Shown piece after piece: positions 76 to 17,034 of a stretch of 64,000 bases of DNA. Made by a program: the position numbers and the translations under genes. The notes below the pieces were generated by a model. The model ran no database searches. It worked only from the letters and a program-made list of their open reading frames with translations, and was not told the origin of the DNA. Location: the NCBI RefSeq assembly GCF_056746865.1, contig NZ_CM163382.1. The stretch is one strand, 5' to 3'. The stretch's first letter is position 1; the number at the start of each line of letters is the position of its first letter.

Positions 76-153
76 GAAAATGATGTCAGGCGTTATCTTT
101 TCTTCCTATAGCGCCTAAAATCGACCTCCCCCCTTTCGTTAAGGATAACGACC

Positions 154-10473: not shown

Positions 10474-11250
10474 ATGGAAATCACTGAACCACGCCGTTTG
10501 TATCAACAACTTGCCGCTGATCTGAAAGAGCGCATCGAACAGGGCGTCTATCTGGTGGGTGATAAACTGCCTGCTGAGCGCTTTATTGCCGATGAAAAGA
10601 ACGTCAGCCGTACGGTAGTTCGTGAAGCCATCATCATGCTGGAAGTTGAAGGCTATGTGGAGGTGCGTAAAGGTTCAGGTATTCACGTGGTTTCCAACCA
10701 GCCGCGTCATCAGCAGGCGGCGGACAATAATATGGAATTCGCCAATTACGGTCCGTTTGAGTTGCTCCAGGCTCGCCAGCTCATCGAAAGTAATATTGCC
10801 GAGTTCGCGGCAACTCAGGTAACGAAACAGGACATCATGAAACTGATGGCCATCCAGGAGCAGGCGCGCGGCGAACAATGCTTCCGTGATTCCGAGTGGG
10901 ATTTGCAGTTCCACATTCAGGTAGCCCTGGCGACGCAGAACTCCGCCCTGGCGGCTATCGTTGAAAAAATGTGGACCCAACGTAGCCATAACCCGTACTG
11001 GAAAAAACTACACGAACACATTGATGCCCGTACTGTCGATAACTGGTGCGATGACCACGATCAGATCCTCAAGGCGTTAATTCGCAAAGATCCTCATGCT
11101 GCCAAGCTGGCAATGTGGCAGCATCTGGAAAACACCAAAATCATGTTATTTAACGAAACCAGCGACGATTTCGAGTTCAATGCCGACCGCTATCTGTTCG
11201 CAGAAAACCCGGTAGTGCATCTCGATACGGCCACCAGCGGCAGCAAATGA
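10474..11250 (+). CDS. exuR: GntR/FadR-family hexuronate regulon repressor ExuR
   Basis: ORF track 10459..11250; start at [13 protein letters not shown] (258 aa); N-terminal winged-HTH and FCD-like C-terminal domain. Confidence 0.93.
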
Positions 11251-11594
11251 AATTTCCATCCGACAGGCGCTGCAATGCGCCTGTTTGCTTCGTCGGTAAG
11301 CGAAAAGTATAAAGTGTCAGCCTGTGTAAATCCTCTCGCCACCCTCCCCTGCAATCAGCAAAATCAGACTCCACGGACATGTAATTTTGATAACGAACAA
11401 CGTTGACCTTTGTTACAATTAGATTCAATTTGAATTTATGCTTTTGAATGCTTTCTTATCTCACGATTTAACAGGGAATAGTTCAGGCTGTGTTGATGTA
11501 TCAAACCCGCAAAACATACCAAAACAGCAATAACATTGCGGTAGTGCATCTTTTAAAACCAGCGTGGCGTTAACCGATTCACCAGGAATAATGA

Positions 11595-12257
11595 ATGGAA
11601 CTTTTGACCCAATTGCTGCAAGCCCTGTGGGCGCAGGATTTTGAAACCCTGGCCAATCCGTCGATGATTGGCATGTTGTATTTTGTCTTGTTTGTAATTT
11701 TGTTCCTTGAAAACGGCTTGCTTCCGGCGGCCTTTTTACCGGGCGACAGTTTACTGGTGTTGGTCGGCGTATTGATTGCGAAAGGCGCGATGGGCTATCC
11801 GCAAACGATTCTGCTGCTGACCGTTGCCGCCAGCCTCGGTTGCTGGGTCAGCTATATTCAGGGGCGATGGTTGGGCAATACCCGCACTGTACAAAACTGG
11901 CTATCTCATTTACCCGCGCATTATCATCAACGCGCACACCATCTTTTTCATAAACACGGTTTATCGGCGCTGTTAATTGGTCGCTTTATTGCATTTGTCA
12001 GAACACTGCTGCCGACGATTGCCGGATTATCAGGGCTGAATAACGCGCGCTTTCAGTTCTTCAACTGGATGAGCGGTCTGCTGTGGGTATTGATCCTGAC
12101 AACTCTGGGTTACATGCTCGGCAAAACGCCGGTATTTTTAAAGTACGAGGACCAGCTGATGTCATGCCTGATGCTGCTCCCGGTGGTGCTGCTGGTGTTT
12201 GGCCTGGCAGGTTCTCTGGTCGTGTTATGGAAAAAGAAATATGGAAATCGGGGGTAA
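11595..12257 (+). CDS. yqjA: DedA-family inner-membrane protein YqjA
   Basis: 220-aa ORF, recognised. Confidence 0.9.
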
Positions 12258-12260
12258 GGG

Positions 12261-12644
12261 ATGCAAATACCTCGCATGTCGCTTCGCCAGCTAGCCTGGT
12301 CCGGCGCTGTTTTACTTCTGGTCGGCACACTGTTGCTGGCCTGGTCCGCGGTTCGCCAGCAAGAGTCTACGCTGGCGATTCGTGCCGTTCATCAAGGGAC
12401 AACGATGCCAGACGGTTTTTCAATCTGGCATCACCTTGACGCTCACGGCATTCCTTTCAAAAGTATCACCCCCAAAAATGACACTCTGTTAATTACCTTT
12501 GACTCCAGCGACCAGAGTGCCGCCGCAAAAGCGGTCCTCGACAGAACATTGCCCCATGGCTACATCATCGCGCAGCAGGACAATAATAGTCAGGCTATGC
12601 AGTGGCTGACCCGGTTGCGGGATAACTCTCATCGCTTCGGATAA
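12261..12644 (+). CDS. mzrA: MzrA (YqjB), membrane modulator of the EnvZ/OmpR two-component system
   Basis: 127-aa ORF with a single N-terminal TM segment, starting 4 nt after the yqjA stop (likely co-transcribed). Confidence 0.88.
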
Positions 12645-12790
12645 CTTCCTGTTATCCGAAACATATCACTGACTTTGGTGATTTCACCGTAACTGTCTAT
12701 GATTAATGAGGCGGTGGTTAACACTACCGCTTCGTTGTCTGGACAATCGTTCCTTTGTAATAGGTCCGAATCACAATGGAAGGTTCAAGA

Positions 12791-13159
12791 ATGAAATACC
12801 GCATCGCTTTAGCTGTTTCTCTCTTTGCTCTTAGTGCCGGTAGTTATGCCACTACCCTGTGTCAGGAAAAGGAGCAAAATATCCTTAAGGAGATCAGCTA
12901 TGCCGAAAAACACCAAAACCAGAATCGTATTGACGGTCTGAATAAAGCCCTGAGTGAAGTCCGGGCCAACTGTTCAGATAGCCAGCTGCGTGCCGATCAT
13001 CAGAAGAAAATCGCAAAGCAGAAAGATGAGGTGGCGGAACGCCAGCAAGATTTAACCGAGGCGAAGCAAAAAGGCGATGCCGATAAGATTGCCAAACGCG
13101 AACGGAAACTGGCAGAAGCGCAGGAAGAGCTGAAAAAGCTGGAAGCGCGCGACTACTAA
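12791..13159 (+). CDS. yqjC: DUF1090 periplasmic protein YqjC (signal peptide, coiled-coil rich)
   Basis: ORF track 12776..13159; start at MKYRIALAVSLFALSAGSYA (signal-peptide-like); Lys/Glu/Ala/Gln-rich helical body. Confidence 0.85.
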   Translation: MKYRIALAVSLFALSAGSYATTLCQEKEQNILKEISYAEKHQNQNRIDGLNKALSEVRANCSDSQLRADHQKKIAKQKDEVAERQQDLTEAKQKGDADKIAKRERKLAEAQEELKKLEARDY

Positions 13160-13196
13160 CTCACAATAGTCACTACTTACTCACCTGGAGAAAACT

Positions 13197-13502
13197 ATGT
13201 CGAAAGAACACACTACGGAACATCTGCGTGCTGAGTTGAAATCCCTTTCCGATACGCTGGAAGAGGTGCTTAGCTCATCTGGCGAGAAGTCGAAAGAAGA
13301 GTTGAGTAAGATTCGTAGCAAAGCGGAGCAGGCACTGAAACAGAGCCGTTATCGCCTGGGTGAAACCGGTGATGCCATCGCCAAACAAACCCGTGTCGCG
13401 GCGGCGCGTGCCGATGAGTATGTGCGTGAAAATCCATGGACGGGCGTGGGCATTGGCGCTGCAATCGGTGTAGTGCTCGGCGTTCTGCTATCGCGTCGTT
13501 AA
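13197..13502 (+). CDS. yqjD: Ribosome- and membrane-associated stationary-phase protein YqjD (ElaB/YgaM family)
   Basis: 101-aa ORF with a C-terminal TM anchor (GVGIGAAIGVVLGVLLSRR); GGAGA RBS upstream. Confidence 0.88.
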   Translation: MSKEHTTEHLRAELKSLSDTLEEVLSSSGEKSKEELSKIRSKAEQALKQSRYRLGETGDAIAKQTRVAAARADEYVRENPWTGVGIGAAIGVVLGVLLSRR

Positions 13503-13504
13503 TT

Positions 13505-13909
13505 ATGGCGGACACTCATCACGCGCAAGGGCCCGGTAAAAGCGTTCTGGGCATCGGGCAGCGAATTGTTTCCATCATGGTTGAAATGGTGGAAACACGT
13601 CTGCGGCTGGCGGTGGTGGAGCTGGAAGAGGAAAAAGCGAATCTCTTTCAACTTTTACTGATGCTGGGCCTGACGATGCTTTTCGCTGCATTTGGTCTTA
13701 TGAGCCTGATGGTGCTGATTATTTGGGCGGTTGATCCGCAATATCGCCTGAATGCGATGATTGCCACCACCGTGGTGTTGCTGCTACTGGCACTGATTGG
13801 CGGTATCTGGACGTTACGTAAATCGCGTAAATCCACCTTGCTGCGCCATACACGCCATGAGCTGGCAAACGATCGGCAGCTGCTCGAGGAGGAGTCCCGT
13901 GAGCAGTAA
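13505..13909 (+). CDS. yqjE: Inner-membrane protein YqjE (DUF1469)
   Basis: ORF track 13436..13909; start set at MADTHHAQGPG, 3 nt after the yqjD stop; two hydrophobic segments. Confidence 0.85.
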   Translation: MADTHHAQGPGKSVLGIGQRIVSIMVEMVETRLRLAVVELEEEKANLFQLLLMLGLTMLFAAFGLMSLMVLIIWAVDPQYRLNAMIATTVVLLLLALIGGIWTLRKSRKSTLLRHTRHELANDRQLLEEESREQ

Positions 13910-14198
13910 AGTCGAACGTGAACGACGTAAGGCGCAACTGCTTAGCCAGATCCAGCAACAACGGCTGGATCTTTCTGCCAGTCGTCGTGAATGGCTGGAG
14001 GCAACAGGCGCTTACGATCGTCGCTGGAATATGCTGCTAAGTCTGCGCTCCTGGGCGCTGGTTGGCAGTAGCGTGATGGCGATCTGGACGATTCGCCATC
14101 CTAATATGCTGGTCCGCTGGGCCAGACGCGGTTTTGGCTTATGGAGCGCCTGGCGTCTGGTTAAAACGACCCTCAAGCAGCAACAGCTTCGCGGTTAA
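13899..14198 (+). CDS. yqjK: Small protein YqjK
   Basis: ORF track 13797..14198; GTG start at 13899 inside a GGAGGAG RBS-like stretch, overlapping the yqjE 3' end by 11 nt; 99 aa. Confidence 0.75.
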   Translation: MSSKVERERRKAQLLSQIQQQRLDLSASRREWLEATGAYDRRWNMLLSLRSWALVGSSVMAIWTIRHPNMLVRWARRGFGLWSAWRLVKTTLKQQQLRG

Positions 14199-14384
14199 TA
14201 ACCTCTCTGGCCGGAGCCATTCCGGCCTTATCCCTCAAATTTTTTGAAGATTTTTGACAGTTTTCCTTGCTAACAATCATCATTCACCACGTTTATGATT
14301 CTCTCCATCGACAGCAACGACGCTAATACCGCGCCCTTGCACAAAAAAACAATCAGCAGCCTGAGTGGCGCAGTGGAGAGTATG

Positions 14385-14777
14385 ATGAAAAAATTAGAAG
14401 ATGTTGGTGTACTGGTAGCGCGCATTTTAATGCCGATTCTGTTTATTACCGCAGGCTGGGGAAAAATTACTGGCTACGCGGGTACCCAACAATATATGGA
14501 AGCGATGGGTGTCCCAGGCTTTATGCTGCCGCTGGTGATTCTGCTTGAGTTTGGTGGTGGTCTGGCAATCCTGTTCGGTTTCCTGACTCGCACCACAGCC
14601 CTGTTTACTGCGGGCTTTACGCTGCTGACGGCATTTTTATTTCACAGCAACTTTGCTGAAGGCGTCAACTCGCTGATGTTCATGAAAAACCTGACAATTT
14701 CTGGCGGATTCCTGCTGCTGGCAATTACCGGTCCGGGCGCGTATAGCATCGACCGCCTGCTGAATAAAAAGTGGTAA
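14385..14777 (+). CDS. yqjF: DoxX-family inner-membrane protein YqjF
   Basis: ORF track 14295..14777; start at MMKKLEDVG (130 aa); multi-TM. Confidence 0.85.
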   Translation: MKKLEDVGVLVARILMPILFITAGWGKITGYAGTQQYMEAMGVPGFMLPLVILLEFGGGLAILFGFLTRTTALFTAGFTLLTAFLFHSNFAEGVNSLMFMKNLTISGGFLLLAITGPGAYSIDRLLNKKW

Positions 14778-14846
14778 GCACGCGCTATACTTAACGATAA
14801 AAAACGAGGAGGAAGCTCCTCGTTTTTGCTATTGGAGGAGAGAAAT

Positions 14847-15833
14847 ATGGGTCAACTGATTGACGGCGTCTGGCATGACACCTGGTACGATACCAAATCT
14901 ACCGGCGGTAAATTTCAACGTTCAGCTTCCGCATTTCGTAACTGGCTCACTGCCGATGGCGCGCCAGGCCCCACTGGCACAGGCGGTTTTATCGCAGAGA
15001 AAGATCGTTATCATCTCTATGTTTCACTCGCCTGCCCGTGGGCGCACCGCACGCTGATCATGCGTAAACTCAAAGGACTGGAACCGTTTATTTCCGTTTC
15101 CGTAGTGAACCCGCTGATGCTGGAAAACGGCTGGACCTTTGATGACAGTTTTCCGGGTGCAACCGGCGATACACTCTATCAACATGAATTTTTGTATCAG
15201 CTTTATCTCCACGCCGATCCACACTACAGCGGACGAGTTACTGTTCCCGTGCTGTGGGACAAAAAGAACCACACCATCGTCAGCAACGAATCAGCAGAAA
15301 TCATCCGCATGTTCAATACCGCGTTTGATGCGCTGGGCGCGAAAGCTGGTGATTACTACCCATCAGCCCTGCAAACGAAAATTGACGAACTTAACGGCTG
15401 GATTTATGACACCGTTAACAATGGCGTGTATAAAGCCGGTTTTGCCACCAGCCAGCAAGCCTACGACGAGGCGGTAGTGAAAGTGTTTGAATCGCTGGCG
15501 CGACTGGAGCAGATTTTAGGCCAGCATCGTTACCTGACCGGCAACCAGCTAACCGAAGCCGATATTCGCCTGTGGACCACGCTGGTGCGTTTTGATCCGG
15601 TGTATGTCACCCACTTCAAGTGTGATAAGCACCGCATCAGCGATTACCTGAATCTGTATGGTTTCCTGCGCGATATCTACCAGATGCCGGGGATTGCCGA
15701 AACTGTCAATTTCGATCACATCCGTAATCACTACTTCCGCAGCCATAAGACCATCAACCCTACGGGGATTATTTCAATTGGTCCGTGGCAGGATCTCGAT
15801 GAACCGCATGGACGAGATGTTCGCTTCGGTTAA
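14847..15833 (+). CDS. yqjG: Glutathionyl-hydroquinone reductase YqjG (Xi-class GST)
   Basis: ORF track 14826..15833; start at MGQLIDGVW (328 aa) with GGAGGAG RBS; CPWAHR active-site motif present. Confidence 0.92.
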   Translation: MGQLIDGVWHDTWYDTKSTGGKFQRSASAFRNWLTADGAPGPTGTGGFIAEKDRYHLYVSLACPWAHRTLIMRKLKGLEPFISVSVVNPLMLENGWTFDDSFPGATGDTLYQHEFLYQLYLHADPHYSGRVTVPVLWDKKNHTIVSNESAEIIRMFNTAFDALGAKAGDYYPSALQTKIDELNGWIYDTVNNGVYKAGFATSQQAYDEAVVKVFESLARLEQILGQHRYLTGNQLTEADIRLWTTLVRFDPVYVTHFKCDKHRISDYLNLYGFLRDIYQMPGIAETVNFDHIRNHYFRSHKTINPTGIISIGPWQDLDEPHGRDVRFG

Positions 15834-15858
15834 AAAAAGGCACCTTACGAGGTGCCTC
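15833..15858. terminator. Stem-loop terminator downstream of yqjG
   Basis: aggcacc-ttacg-aggtgcct hairpin immediately after the yqjG stop, flanked by an A-run upstream and T-rich sequence downstream. Confidence 0.6.
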
Positions 15859-15885
15859 TGATTATTAGCTAAGTGCGTGTTATTT

Positions 15886-15985
15886 ATGTCGGATGCGGCG
15901 TGAACGTTTTCTCCAACTTACAAAACGTTTATATTCAATATGTTACAATGCCGCGTAGGCCAGATAAGCGTAGCGCATCTGGCGA
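15886..15985. repeat. REP/BIME-like palindromic repeats
   Basis: gtcggatgcggcgtgaacg and gccgcgtaggccagataagcgtagcgcatctggcg resemble the REP consensus (GCCGGATGCGGCG... / ...CTTATCCGGCCTAC). Confidence 0.55.
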
Positions 15986-16124
15986 TTTTGCGCTTGTCAT
16001 CAGTCTTAGCGCGCCTTCACGGCACTTTATTAATTCCTTGAACGAATATTTACTGCCATTTCATTCACGTCTATTCTTAATTTGCTGCTTTAAAAACAAG
16101 TGATTGAGCAAAATTGAGGCAAAA

Positions 16125-16490
16125 ATGGACTGGTATCTGAAAGTACTAAAAAATTATGTCGGTTTCCGGGGTCGTGCGCGGCGCAAAGAGTACTGGATGT
16201 TTATTCTGGTCAACATCATCTTTACGTTCGTGCTGGGGCTGCTGGATAAAATGTTAGGCTGGCAACGCGCTGGTGGCGAAGGCATCCTGACAACAATCTA
16301 CGGTATTCTGGTGTTTTTACCGTGGTGGGCGGTTCAGTTCCGCCGCCTGCACGACACCGACCGCTCGGCGTGGTGGGCACTGCTGTTCTTAATCCCGTTT
16401 ATCGGCTGGCTTATTATCATCGTCTTTAACTGCCAGGCGGGTACGCCAGGCGAAAACCGCTTTGGACCTGATCCAAAACTGGAACCTTAA
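16125..16490 (+). CDS. yhaH: DUF805-family inner-membrane protein YhaH
   Basis: ORF track 16104..16490; start at MDWYLKVLKNYVGF (121 aa); paralogous to the next gene, yhaI. Confidence 0.88.
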   Translation: MDWYLKVLKNYVGFRGRARRKEYWMFILVNIIFTFVLGLLDKMLGWQRAGGEGILTTIYGILVFLPWWAVQFRRLHDTDRSAWWALLFLIPFIGWLIIIVFNCQAGTPGENRFGPDPKLEP

Positions 16491-16731: not shown

Positions 16732-17034
16732 ATGCAGTGGTATTTATCCGTATTAAAAAATTATGTTGGTTTCTCTGGTCGCGCACGTCGTAAAGAGTAC
16801 TGGATGTTTACTCTGATTAACGCCATCGTCGGCGCTATTATCAATGTCATTCAATTGATTTTAGGTTTAGAGTTTCCGTTCCTTTCTCTCATTTACCTGG
16901 CAGCAACAATCATTCCGGTCATTGCTCTGTGCGTTCGTCGTCTGCATGATACTGACCGTTCAGGTGCGTGGGCGCTTCTCTATCTGGTACCGATCATTGG
17001 CTGGTTAGTTCTGTTTGTATTTGCCTGTTGGTAA
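16732..17034 (+). CDS. yhaI: DUF805-family inner-membrane protein YhaI, 3' end disrupted by IS1 (reading frame ends ...FVFACW* with the stop inside IS1)
   Basis: ORF runs into the IS1 end at 17030; N-terminus MQWYLSVLKNYVGFSGRARRKEYWMF is paralogous to YhaH; removing IS1 and one TSD copy restores a 118-aa frame. Confidence 0.85.
   Translation: MQWYLSVLKNYVGFSGRARRKEYWMFTLINAIVGAIINVIQLILGLEFPFLSLIYLAATIIPVIALCVRRLHDTDRSGAWALLYLVPIIGWLVLFVFACW

Follow-up and report, generated by a model that had tools for sequence, protein, structure and literature searches.

In Escherichia coli, the gene for the ribosome-inactivating membrane protein YqjD is preceded by yqjC and followed by yqjE and yqjK, which raises the question of which of these small genes belong together, and of what YqjK and YqjE, the latter carrying the family label of a phage holin, contribute beside YqjD. 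The locus was analyzed within a window of 64,000 nucleotides (the whole stretch of DNA under study, from contig NZ_CM163382.1 of assembly GCF_056746865.1), in which positions 12791-14198 correspond to E. coli yqjC, yqjD, yqjE and yqjK according to ORF positions and comparison with RefSeq (Table 1). The same four coding sequences with identical boundaries are annotated in RefSeq for a strain that is 100% identical; several non-K-12 strains share 100% identity with the window, and the segment is found in 5422 of 5426 complete E. coli genomes. These numbers, together with tight junctions in 80/80 Enterobacteriaceae species genomes, place the four-gene segment far beyond chance.

All four genes lie on one strand with successive gaps of 37, 2 and -11 nt, i.e., head-to-tail as described in a first-pass annotation of this DNA, whose 11-nt overlap between yqjE and a GTG-initiated yqjK is exact (13899-13909). 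The distance of 3 nt that it gave between the yqjD stop and the yqjE start has to be corrected to 2 nt (TT), with yqjD ending at 13502 and the yqjE ATG at 13505; the earlier figure is the coordinate difference. Gene identities and small-protein descriptions agree with hydropathy and with the Pfam family assignments, which are above the cut-offs for all four proteins. The locus is already known: it is the well-annotated, tightly coupled yqjCDEK operon of E. coli. An Rfam scan of positions 11000-15500 returned no RNA family, and a sequence search against solved structures gave no real homologue of YqjC, YqjD, YqjE or YqjK. PADLOC defense-system models gave no match for YqjC, YqjE or YqjK; membership in an anti-phage defense system was rejected, the sole similarity being a weak one between YqjD and LeoC (21 bits, E 7e-5). 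A GC-rich hairpin beyond yqjK folds as RNA at -15 kcal/mol (z = -2.8 vs. shuffled sequences) and is a possible operon terminator; no T-run directly follows it, and a terminator scan did not call it.

Table 1. Genes and regulatory elements of the yqjCDEK locus (window coordinates).
Feature	Position	Strand	Description
yqjC sigma-S promoter	12697..12709	+	-10 region CTATGATT (12697-12704); start A 12709, 82 nt before yqjC ATG
CsrA site BS1	12774..12783	+	AAUGGAAGGU; GGA 12778-12780, at -13 from yqjC ATG; overlaps yqjC Shine-Dalgarno sequence
yqjC	12791..13159	+	ATG 12791, TAA 13159; 122 aa; DUF1090 (PF06476, E 8.6e-35); RefSeq CDS
Internal sigma-S promoter for yqjDEK	13084..13096	+	within yqjC coding region; -10-like TAAGAT 13084-13089; start sites CCAAA 13092-13096, -105 to -101 from yqjD ATG
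CsrA sites BS2-BS4	13123..13189	+	BS2 GGA 13123-13125 (-74), BS3 GGA 13141-13143 (-56), BS4 GGA 13187-13189 (-10, on yqjD Shine-Dalgarno sequence); positions match published sites
yqjD	13197..13502	+	101 aa; DUF883 helical N-domain and glycine-zipper TM segment 81-99
yqjE	13505..13909	+	134 aa; two-TM protein, PF07332; start 2 nt past yqjD stop
Shine-Dalgarno-like sequence for yqjK	13886..13894	+	GAGGAGGAG; within last yqjE codons, upstream of GTG 13899
yqjK	13899..14198	+	GTG 13899, TAA 14198; 99 aa; PF13997, E 3.6e-25
GC-rich hairpin	14209..14227	+	GGCCGGA-GCCAU-UCCGGCC; 11 nt past yqjK stop; possible operon terminator

The stationary-phase character proposed for the locus is well founded, as dependence of the yqjCDEK operon on RpoS (sigma-S) has been shown experimentally (PMC10746276). 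A second sigma-S promoter inside yqjC drives yqjD, which is regulated differently from yqjC, the two genes even showing opposite responses to some stresses (PMC10746276). [quoted passage not shown] All of these published promoter and CsrA elements were recovered in the window at their reported offsets: the -10-like sequence of the yqjC promoter with its upstream C is present at the published position, and the published yqjDEK start sites CCA/AA match exactly. A simple sigma-70 scan missed the yqjC promoter, its sole match between mzrA and yqjC being located just downstream (12718-12747). The operon is a stationary-phase locus with sigma-S as activator and CsrA as repressor.

For YqjD itself, a mechanism has been described. 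The protein encoded in the window is the same as the experimentally studied E. coli YqjD; it matches PF05957 (E 4e-13) and PF19029 (DUF883_C, E 1.4e-15), both above cut-off, and shows only sub-threshold matches to the models of its paralogues, ElaB and PRK10132. An N-terminal DUF883 domain is combined with an anchor that ends the protein (Kyte-Doolittle window 81-99 of 101 residues), which bears out the earlier description of a C-terminally anchored member of the ElaB/YgaM family, and yqjE-like and yqjK-like genes follow downstream, as expected for the YqjD subtype. According to the literature, YqjD inserts into the inner membrane through its C-terminal glycine-zipper helix and dimerizes. The tail-anchored protein tethers and inactivates ribosomes via the 50S subunit, near and inside the exit tunnel, which is contacted by the N-terminal part, so that ribosomes are silenced and parked at the membrane; both YqjD and ElaB bind 50S and inhibit in vitro translation in a dose-dependent manner (bioRxiv 10.1101/2024.08.16.608256). 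Deletion of yqjD delays regrowth (bioRxiv 10.1101/2025.11.04.686544). The first-pass view that the mechanism of the cluster is largely undescribed is therefore outdated for YqjD; the regulation of the operon has also been mapped, and the conserved synteny of yqjE and yqjK with yqjD has been published. In short, annotation, regulation and the YqjD mechanism are all in the literature. YqjD alone inhibits translation in vitro, and ribosomes are reportedly also inactivated by its paralogues ElaB and YgaM, whose genes have no yqjE or yqjK beside them (bioRxiv 10.1101/2024.08.16.608256); YqjE and YqjK are therefore not required for the core activity.

Which genes form the evolutionary unit can be answered by comparing loci at increasing distance. 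Within the Enterobacteriaceae, gene order is kept in all 80 species genomes, with a gap of -1 to 2 nt between yqjD and yqjE and a spacing between yqjE and yqjK that varies between an overlap of 11 nt and a gap of 6 nt; yqjC lies upstream of yqjD in 80/80 of these loci wherever the contig extends that far. However, the genome scan with the YqjE alignment covered closer sequences and returned Enterobacteriaceae only, where the yqjA-yqjF block is conserved as a whole, so that it documents family-level synteny and says little about functional linkage. More telling are the neighborhoods of 10 distant YqjK representatives (23-35% identity): a PF07332-type gene is found directly upstream of yqjK in 10/10 and is itself preceded by a DUF883-type gene in 9/10. 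At one locus (L087), the YqjE-type gene has no Pfam match on record, yet aligns with YqjE. Among 80 metagenome loci seeded on YqjE, yqjD lies upstream of yqjE in 78/78 with room for it and yqjK downstream in 73/73, a count that includes one YqjK identified by eye with a sub-threshold Pfam score. In the sampled loci, YqjK never occurs without a YqjE-type gene directly upstream, and adjacency with near-zero spacing persists at 25-35% identity in otherwise unrelated neighborhoods. The cassette is retained even in a 513-kb genome, while another reduced, AT-rich genome has kept yqjE-yqjK and lost the adjacent yqjD. The evolutionary unit is thus yqjD-yqjE-yqjK, whose genes almost always abut or overlap in proteobacterial lineages with identities as low as about 25%.

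The position of yqjC is different. It is present in 55/80 metagenome loci, is missing from 16 loci that have room for it and retain the other three genes, and is restricted to closer relatives among the loci sampled. Given this absence and a regulation that differs from that of yqjD, yqjC is a later, separately regulated addition to the cassette; it encodes a DUF1090 protein that is predicted to be periplasmic and has two conserved cysteines (Cys24 and Cys61, retained in 98-100% of 124 unique sequences). The signal peptide and coiled-coil body ascribed to YqjC are compatible with its sequence: read by eye, the N-terminus shows K/R followed by a hydrophobic stretch ending in SYA|TT, with putative cleavage after SYA at residue 20, and the body is helical and charged. 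The first-pass annotation treated the four genes as one uniform module and named independent transcription and lack of co-conservation as observations that would speak against it. The cluster indeed splits into one plus three genes in this way, because yqjD has its own sigma-S promoter and differs in regulation, and because yqjC is missing from the 16 loci; co-occurrence across genomes holds for yqjD, yqjE and yqjK, which are essentially always together, and fails for yqjC.

The two proteins encoded with YqjD are both small and largely helical. YqjE matches PF07332 (Phage_holin_3_6) with 75.8 bits (E 3.5e-21, cut-off 28.4), and hydropathy places its hydrophobic segments at residues 58-76 and 84-102, in line with the two-TM protein described before. 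Its invariant columns comprise a juxtamembrane motif (ETRL...ELEEE), a loop arginine (Arg81) and Asp123, and its AlphaFold2 helices reach block-mean pLDDT values of 69-86. YqjK, assigned to PF13997 by sequence and located right behind a YqjE-type gene, is as basic and as long as previously stated (net charge +13, 99 aa, GTG start); longer proteins containing YqjK have no second domain. Modeled alone, it is predicted with a pLDDT of 92 to fold into a hairpin of one long and one short helix (residues 4-66 and 68-98), bent at His67/Pro68. Its middle segment is only marginally hydrophobic (hydropathy maximum 1.35, with Arg50 inside), too weakly for a confident membrane helix by itself, so that the protein may depend on a partner in the membrane.

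Translational coupling of the three genes, as proposed in the first-pass annotation, is plausible: junctions are near-abutting in every lineage sampled, and the 25 nt upstream of yqjE contain no purine-rich Shine-Dalgarno sequence. In such a scheme, ribosomes completing yqjD would go on to translate yqjE, and yqjK would be translated from the Shine-Dalgarno sequence within the end of yqjE; similar GGAGGA or GGAAGAGGA strings precede yqjK in other Enterobacteriaceae. Because yqjE lacks a site of its own and that of yqjK lies inside yqjE, we infer that the three proteins are made together at the membrane in linked amounts. YqjE, with two TM segments and a juxtamembrane helix that is acidic and invariant, and YqjK, a very basic hairpin, most likely make up a complex in the inner membrane that serves YqjD as a partner. 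This complex would control the insertion, oligomeric state or release of YqjD and thereby tune the strength and reversibility of ribosome silencing. We regard it as moderately probable that the locus is a sigma-S- and CsrA-controlled operon in which the cassette proteins are co-made, YqjE and YqjK form a complex that tunes ribosome silencing by YqjD, and YqjE is no holin.

The search for signs of such a complex has given no direct evidence of one. A fused D-linker-E-linker-K model (AlphaFold2, paired alignment of 35 rows) yielded confident helices with a pTM of 0.41 and a weak YqjD TM segment (pLDDT 61-68); structure prediction, put forward in the first-pass annotation as a way to examine interactions, hence supports the helical hairpins and provides no readable evidence of a complex. 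An argument from pLDDT was rejected: in a control with the same rows, YqjK alone reached 92, compared to block means of 72-87 in the fusion, and its higher confidence alone means that the modeling shows no sign of YqjK needing YqjE or YqjD. Co-variation of evolutionary rates among 77 Enterobacteriaceae was highest for YqjE-YqjK (0.58), but does not single out the cassette, since mzrA-yqjC scored as high (0.56). Candidate Rosetta-stone fusions of D-E and E-K were also discarded as apparent frameshift artifacts; their identity to the E. coli protein is 87-100%, in most cases 98-100%. The sole published “interaction” evidence is a PREDDIMER prediction.

A more far-reaching version of this reading can be put forward tentatively: YqjE and YqjK might be obligate co-translated partners of YqjD that act as a gate or release switch, forming a three-part device that couples membrane state to ribosome parking, with “holin” as a misnomer. 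Membrane state here refers to potential, lipid or envelope stress, and the plugging of ribosomes would be reversible. It also regards the cassette as important enough to survive in reduced genomes of roughly 0.5 Mb.

Alternatively, the cassette might primarily serve envelope stress or membrane homeostasis, stabilizing or remodeling the inner membrane in stationary phase, with ribosome binding as a secondary property. Expression of the homologous operon PA3040-PA3042 of Pseudomonas aeruginosa rises under cell-envelope stress, on phage exposure and in stationary phase, and the operon affects biofilm formation and tobramycin tolerance (PMC11302039). Moreover, the neighbors are repeatedly envelope or lipid genes: those for DedA/YqjA and MzrA flank the cassette in Enterobacterales, and six loci of another gamma-proteobacterial clade have a gene for the phospholipase PldA immediately upstream. 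A DoxX gene also occurs nearby. YqjC is predicted to be periplasmic, and a link between ElaB and resistance to oxidative and heat stress has been reported. The envelope stress module of the first-pass annotation thus has indirect support, from the P. aeruginosa response and the adjoining genes. However, gene neighborhood inside one family is ordinary synteny, the literature found holds no membrane phenotype for E. coli yqjE or yqjK mutants, and the dose-dependent block of translation by 50S-bound YqjD and ElaB (bioRxiv 10.1101/2024.08.16.608256) speaks against it, so that we consider a primary envelope function unlikely.

The holin label has led to a different idea, namely that YqjE is a holin-like depolarizing toxin, restrained by YqjK or YqjD, which would induce dormancy mainly through collapse of the membrane potential; silencing of ribosomes by YqjD is treated as a parallel arm. 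YqjE matches a family placed in the holin superfamily, and a Salmonella phage holin with a PF07332 domain label has been reported (PMC12774745). Overproduction of YqjE is described as causing growth arrest and raised persistence (Chowdhury et al., 2016, as cited in PMC10746276 and PMC11302039). The overlap of yqjK with yqjE is also of a kind often seen in antitoxin and antiholin genes. However, small membrane proteins are commonly toxic when overproduced. A core gene present in 5422/5426 E. coli genomes and kept in strongly reduced ones would be unusual for a toxin, and the P. aeruginosa homologues are non-toxic when overexpressed (PMC11302039).

Nor do phages provide a home for YqjE, for which HMM, tblastn and viral-contig searches gave no phage relatives. 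PHROG contains no family for YqjE or 10 diverse relatives, and a search of 50,697 phage records yielded no true phage homologue, but two matches only, to a 1.9-kb record lacking annotation and to a contig of a Salmonella genome, both of which we read as host DNA. Among 2.9 million viral contigs, no relative was found with the patterns used, and structural comparison with viral and PDB structures gave no match at E <= 0.001. In loci with annotated or called genes, yqjE adjoins yqjD, yqjK and housekeeping genes, and no endolysin. A role as functional phage holin was rejected for want of a phage or prophage home and an adjacent endolysin; YqjE is thus probably not a working phage holin, and the depolarizing toxin appears quite improbable.

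That the four genes are functionally unrelated and packed by chance, their overlaps reflecting genome compaction, is highly improbable: separate promoters and opposite stress responses of yqjC and yqjD (PMC10746276), the lack of co-conservation of yqjC and the synteny of the whole region in Enterobacteriaceae, where adjacency proves little, agree with it, but the co-occurrence counts, with near-zero spacing at 25-35% identity in unrelated neighborhoods and YqjK never lacking its upstream partner, contradict it for the cassette, so that it survives only for yqjC versus the other three.

Tuning of YqjD by YqjE and YqjK, the reading that we prefer, has a wider bearing. The cassette is found alongside ribosome hibernation factors of a widespread class, and its homologues influence persistence, biofilm formation and aminoglycoside tolerance; knowing the role of YqjE and YqjK would thus reveal how ribosome silencing at the membrane is turned on and off. 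The present counts sharpen this question without answering it: the unit is yqjD-yqjE-yqjK with tight junctions, YqjK is never seen without a YqjE-type gene, and the “holin” has no phage link.

Four known systems invite comparison. With the phage holins of “holin superfamily III” (PF07332), YqjE shares a score above the gathering threshold and two TM helices, as in class II holins; in contrast to these, it is a chromosomal core gene fixed beside a ribosome hibernation factor and has no known lysis function. Compared to the yqjCDEK operon of E. coli K-12 (b3097-b3100; PMC10746276), genes, order and boundaries are alike, the same sigma-S promoter sequences and four CsrA GGA sites occur at the published offsets, and there is no difference of substance. 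Among the DUF883 proteins YqjD, ElaB and YgaM (Yoshida et al., 2012; bioRxiv 10.1101/2024.08.16.608256), the YqjD of the window shares the N-domain and glycine-zipper anchor and represents the archetype of ribosome inactivators that keep yqjE and yqjK as neighbors, unlike ElaB and YgaM, which are Enterobacteriaceae-level duplicates reported without them. A further parallel is the P. aeruginosa operon PA3040-PA3042, whose three genes, encoding a DUF883 protein, a protein similar to YqjE and a third, small protein, are spaced by <15 bp and induced in stationary phase like yqjCDEK; it differs in its reported role in the envelope-stress response, its biofilm and tobramycin phenotypes and its lack of toxicity on overexpression (PMC11302039). 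These phenotypes are mostly attributable to the third gene and do not obviously involve ribosomes, and its product, PA3042, has been described without a recognized domain (PMC11302039). Since the third gene was recognized as PF13997 in distant loci wherever tested, PA3042 may be a divergent YqjK.

The yqjCDEK cluster is a known, published operon, of modest interest for what YqjE and YqjK may do. The window comes from the Escherichia coli chromosome: over positions 12600-14300 it matches several sequenced strains at 100% identity, and of 5426 complete E. coli genomes 5422 carry this segment. RefSeq annotates the order exuR-yqiM-yqjA-mzrA-yqjC-yqjD-yqjE-yqjK-yqjF-yqjG. The first-pass annotation, which took the four tightly coupled genes for a probable envelope stress module, was correct at the level of sequence: the genes are real, their names are exactly those of RefSeq, and the 11-nt yqjE/yqjK overlap is exact. 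The 3 nt quoted between yqjD and yqjE, however, is a coordinate difference, the true gap from stop to ATG being 2 bases (TT). All four proteins score well over the Pfam cut-off: YqjC as DUF1090, YqjD as DUF883 plus DUF883_C, YqjE as PF07332 (Phage_holin_3_6) and YqjK as PF13997 (YqjK). By hydropathy, YqjD has a single C-terminal transmembrane segment (residues 81-99) and YqjE has two (58-76 and 84-102); YqjK, with a net charge of +13, has only a marginal hydrophobic stretch (top 19-residue window 1.35, containing Arg50). YqjC may be an exported, disulfide-bonded helical protein, since its N-terminus is signal-peptide-like (ending SYA|TT) and its two cysteines are conserved (98-100% among 124 unique relatives).

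Features of the operon and its surroundings, and compared loci (positions in the window unless a locus handle is given)
Feature	Position	Strand	Remark
yqiM	11490-11573	+	27-codon GTG-initiated ORF between exuR and yqjA (RefSeq)
yqjA/mzrA junction	12255-12263		yqjA stop 12255-12257, mzrA ATG 12261
yqjC promoter	12697-12704	+	-10-like CTATGATT; start A 12709; match to PMC10746276
CsrA GGA motifs	12778, 13123, 13141, 13187	+	match to PMC10746276
yqjC	12791-13159	+	122 aa; read from sequence, annotated in RefSeq
Promoter inside yqjC	13084-13089, 13092-13096	+	TAAGAT, CCAAA; match to PMC10746276
yqjD	13197-13502	+	101 aa; read from sequence, annotated in RefSeq
yqjE	13505-13909	+	134 aa; read from sequence, annotated in RefSeq
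yqjK	13899-14198	+	GTG start, 99 aa; read from sequence, annotated in RefSeq
Sigma-70-like element	14254-14283		TTGACA-18-CATCAT, near-consensus, close to yqjF
yqjF start	14295 or 14385		longest ORF (160 aa) or RefSeq (130 aa)
yqjG-yhaH gap	15834-16103		270 nt; IS1 in strain 7/2 (L001:6235-7322)
yhaH, yhaI-like	16104-16490, 16732-17034		adjacent DUF805-type paralogues
Reduced genome, CP145872.1	L090:2795-3785		513 kb, 32% GC
Reduced genome, GCA_002933335.1	L085:2812-3803		27% GC
PldA-type neighbour loci	L003:945-2936, L089:1521-2717, L092:1696-2613, L093:893-2086, L094:593-2086, L109:1027-2070

Just upstream of the operon, yqjA and mzrA form a tight pair (gap 3 nt), and downstream the start of yqjF is ambiguous. 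In strain 7/2, whose sequence does not differ from the window in 12600-14300, an IS1 lies between yqjG and yhaH, a place where the window shows just a gap. The DUF805-type paralogues beyond this gap have a common N-terminal motif, YLxVLKNYVGFxGRARRKEYWMF.

The "yqjCDEK operon" has been dissected experimentally (mBio 2023; PMC10746276): one sigma-S-dependent transcription start lies 82 nt upstream of yqjC and a second within yqjC, 101-105 nt ahead of yqjD, while CsrA has one site on the yqjC Shine-Dalgarno sequence and three on the yqjD leader. All of these elements were located in the window at the published offsets. The same study reports unequal abundance of yqjC and yqjD and opposite responses to some stresses. 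YqjD-type DUF883 proteins inhibit translation in vitro, touch the proteins surrounding the exit tunnel and go into the tunnel (bioRxiv 10.1101/2024.08.16.608256), and deletion of yqjD delays regrowth (2025 preprint, bioRxiv 10.1101/2025.11.04.686544). Control by sigma-S and CsrA has been shown by others, and so has the action of YqjD, which as a tail-anchored dimer plugs the exit tunnel of the 50S subunit.

Across 80 species-representative Enterobacteriaceae genomes, the order yqjA-mzrA-yqjC-D-E-K-yqjF is kept wherever the contig is long enough, with a D-E gap of -1 to 2 nt and an E/K spacing from 11-nt overlap to 6-nt gap (each 80/80) and a variable C-D gap (12-85 nt). Synteny at the family level alone says little, and therefore distant lineages were sampled too. 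At the loci of 10 distant YqjK representatives (23-35% identity), a PF07332-type gene lies immediately 5' of yqjK in every case and a DUF883-type gene next upstream in nine; no DUF1090 gene was found, the upstream sequence being sufficient to judge in six. Among 80 metagenome loci seeded from a different YqjE clade, YqjD precedes YqjE in 78/78 loci with room and YqjK follows in 73/73 (72 plus one by eye), and YqjC is present in 55 of 80 and absent despite room in 10. The YqjC-bearing loci are the closer relatives (at least 52% concatenated identity to E. coli), and the conserved unit is therefore yqjD-yqjE-yqjK, a near-invariant, nearly abutting cassette; yqjC, an add-on confined to certain lineages, is regulated separately. 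The four-gene module first proposed is better described as the yqjDEK cassette plus yqjC.

Two strongly reduced, AT-rich genomes bear on the same genes. One (CP145872.1) retains yqjD-yqjE-yqjK; the other (GCA_002933335.1) retains yqjA, yqjE and yqjK, a 294-nt AT-rich non-coding remnant occupying the place of mzrA, yqjC and yqjD, and YqjE-YqjK may therefore be useful without adjacent YqjD. At six loci of a single clade outside the enterobacteria, the gene immediately 5' of yqjD-E-K encodes a PldA-type outer-membrane phospholipase A1 (PF02253); two of these loci (L093 and L094) are near-identical, with the same coordinates and scores for the D, E and K ORFs. The upstream neighbour in Enterobacterales is the DedA-family yqjA, and both types are membrane or lipid genes.

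The 25 nt upstream of the yqjE ATG, which encode the C-terminus of YqjD, are free of any purine-rich ribosome-binding site, and yqjK is preceded by GAGGAGGAG, embedded in the final yqjE codons. Together with the conserved spacing, these signals fit putative termination-reinitiation at yqjE and overlap-assisted initiation at yqjK. The hairpin 3' of yqjK is stable, but without an adjoining T-run. Several public gene calls (P0002, P0003, P0014, P0034, P0039, P0060) fuse YqjD with YqjE or YqjE with YqjK at 87-100% identity to E. coli YqjE (most 98-100%); frameshifts or assembly errors at the 2-nt gap and 11-nt overlap are their most likely origin, rather than natural fusion. Evolutionary-rate co-variation is 0.58 for E-K but nearly as high, 0.56, for mzrA-yqjC.

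What YqjE and YqjK do may be explained as follows: they would be synthesised along with YqjD and constitute its membrane partner complex, which would tune YqjD assembly or release. We put the chances of this reading at about even. DUF883 genes are adjoined by yqjE-/yqjK-like genes across the family (bioRxiv 10.1101/2024.08.16.608256), and YqjE and YqjK are said to "form complexes" (PMC10746276), the sole basis being the PREDDIMER server. No solved homologue was found for YqjC, YqjD, YqjE or YqjK. A YqjD-linker-YqjE-linker-YqjK chain, modelled on a 35-row paired alignment (25-84% identity), is all-helical (mean pLDDT 71.6, pTM 0.41), with lowest confidence in the YqjD transmembrane segment (pLDDT 61-68). 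In the modelled YqjE, one 66-residue helix spans both the acidic juxtamembrane stretch and the first transmembrane segment; after a loop of five residues come the second transmembrane helix and a further helix at the C-terminus. YqjK has a long helix (residues 2-66) that bends at His67/Pro68 into an amphipathic Trp/Arg-rich second helix. Folded alone from the same rows as a control, YqjK gave the same hairpin at higher confidence (pLDDT 92), and the models are therefore silent on a D-E-K complex, neither supporting nor excluding it. The invariant acidic helix of YqjE (ETRL...ELEEE) and the YqjK hairpin, strongly basic and only weakly hydrophobic, would go well together in a complex, as compatibility rather than evidence.

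Alternatively, and with lower probability, the cassette could encode a holin-like toxin that depolarises the membrane, together with a partner that restrains it. One Salmonella phage holin is reported to carry a PF07332-type domain label via CDD (PMC12774745), which makes remote kinship of YqjE with phage holins conceivable. The holin label itself is without phage support: neither YqjE nor 10 diverse relatives match a PHROG holin family, tblastn of 50,697 phage records returned only two matches, one to a 1.9-kb record without annotation and one to a contig of a Salmonella genome, read as host DNA, the patterns scanned against 2.9 million viral contigs brought up no relative, and the fused D-E-K model, YqjE included, has no viral or solved-structure match at E <= 0.001. 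YqjE is not placed as a holin in the defining context either, being a chromosomal core gene that adjoins a ribosome hibernation factor. A role mainly in envelope homeostasis is likewise a less probable rival, and mere adjacency survives for yqjC only.

No Rfam family was found in window 11000-15500, and no defence-system match except a weak similarity of YqjD residues 3-96 to the C-terminal region of LeoC, a PADLOC model (E 7e-5, 21 bits). Among known systems, the homologous operon of P. aeruginosa, PA3040-3042, reacts to stationary phase, to contact with phage and to envelope stress, and affects biofilm and tobramycin tolerance (PMC11302039).
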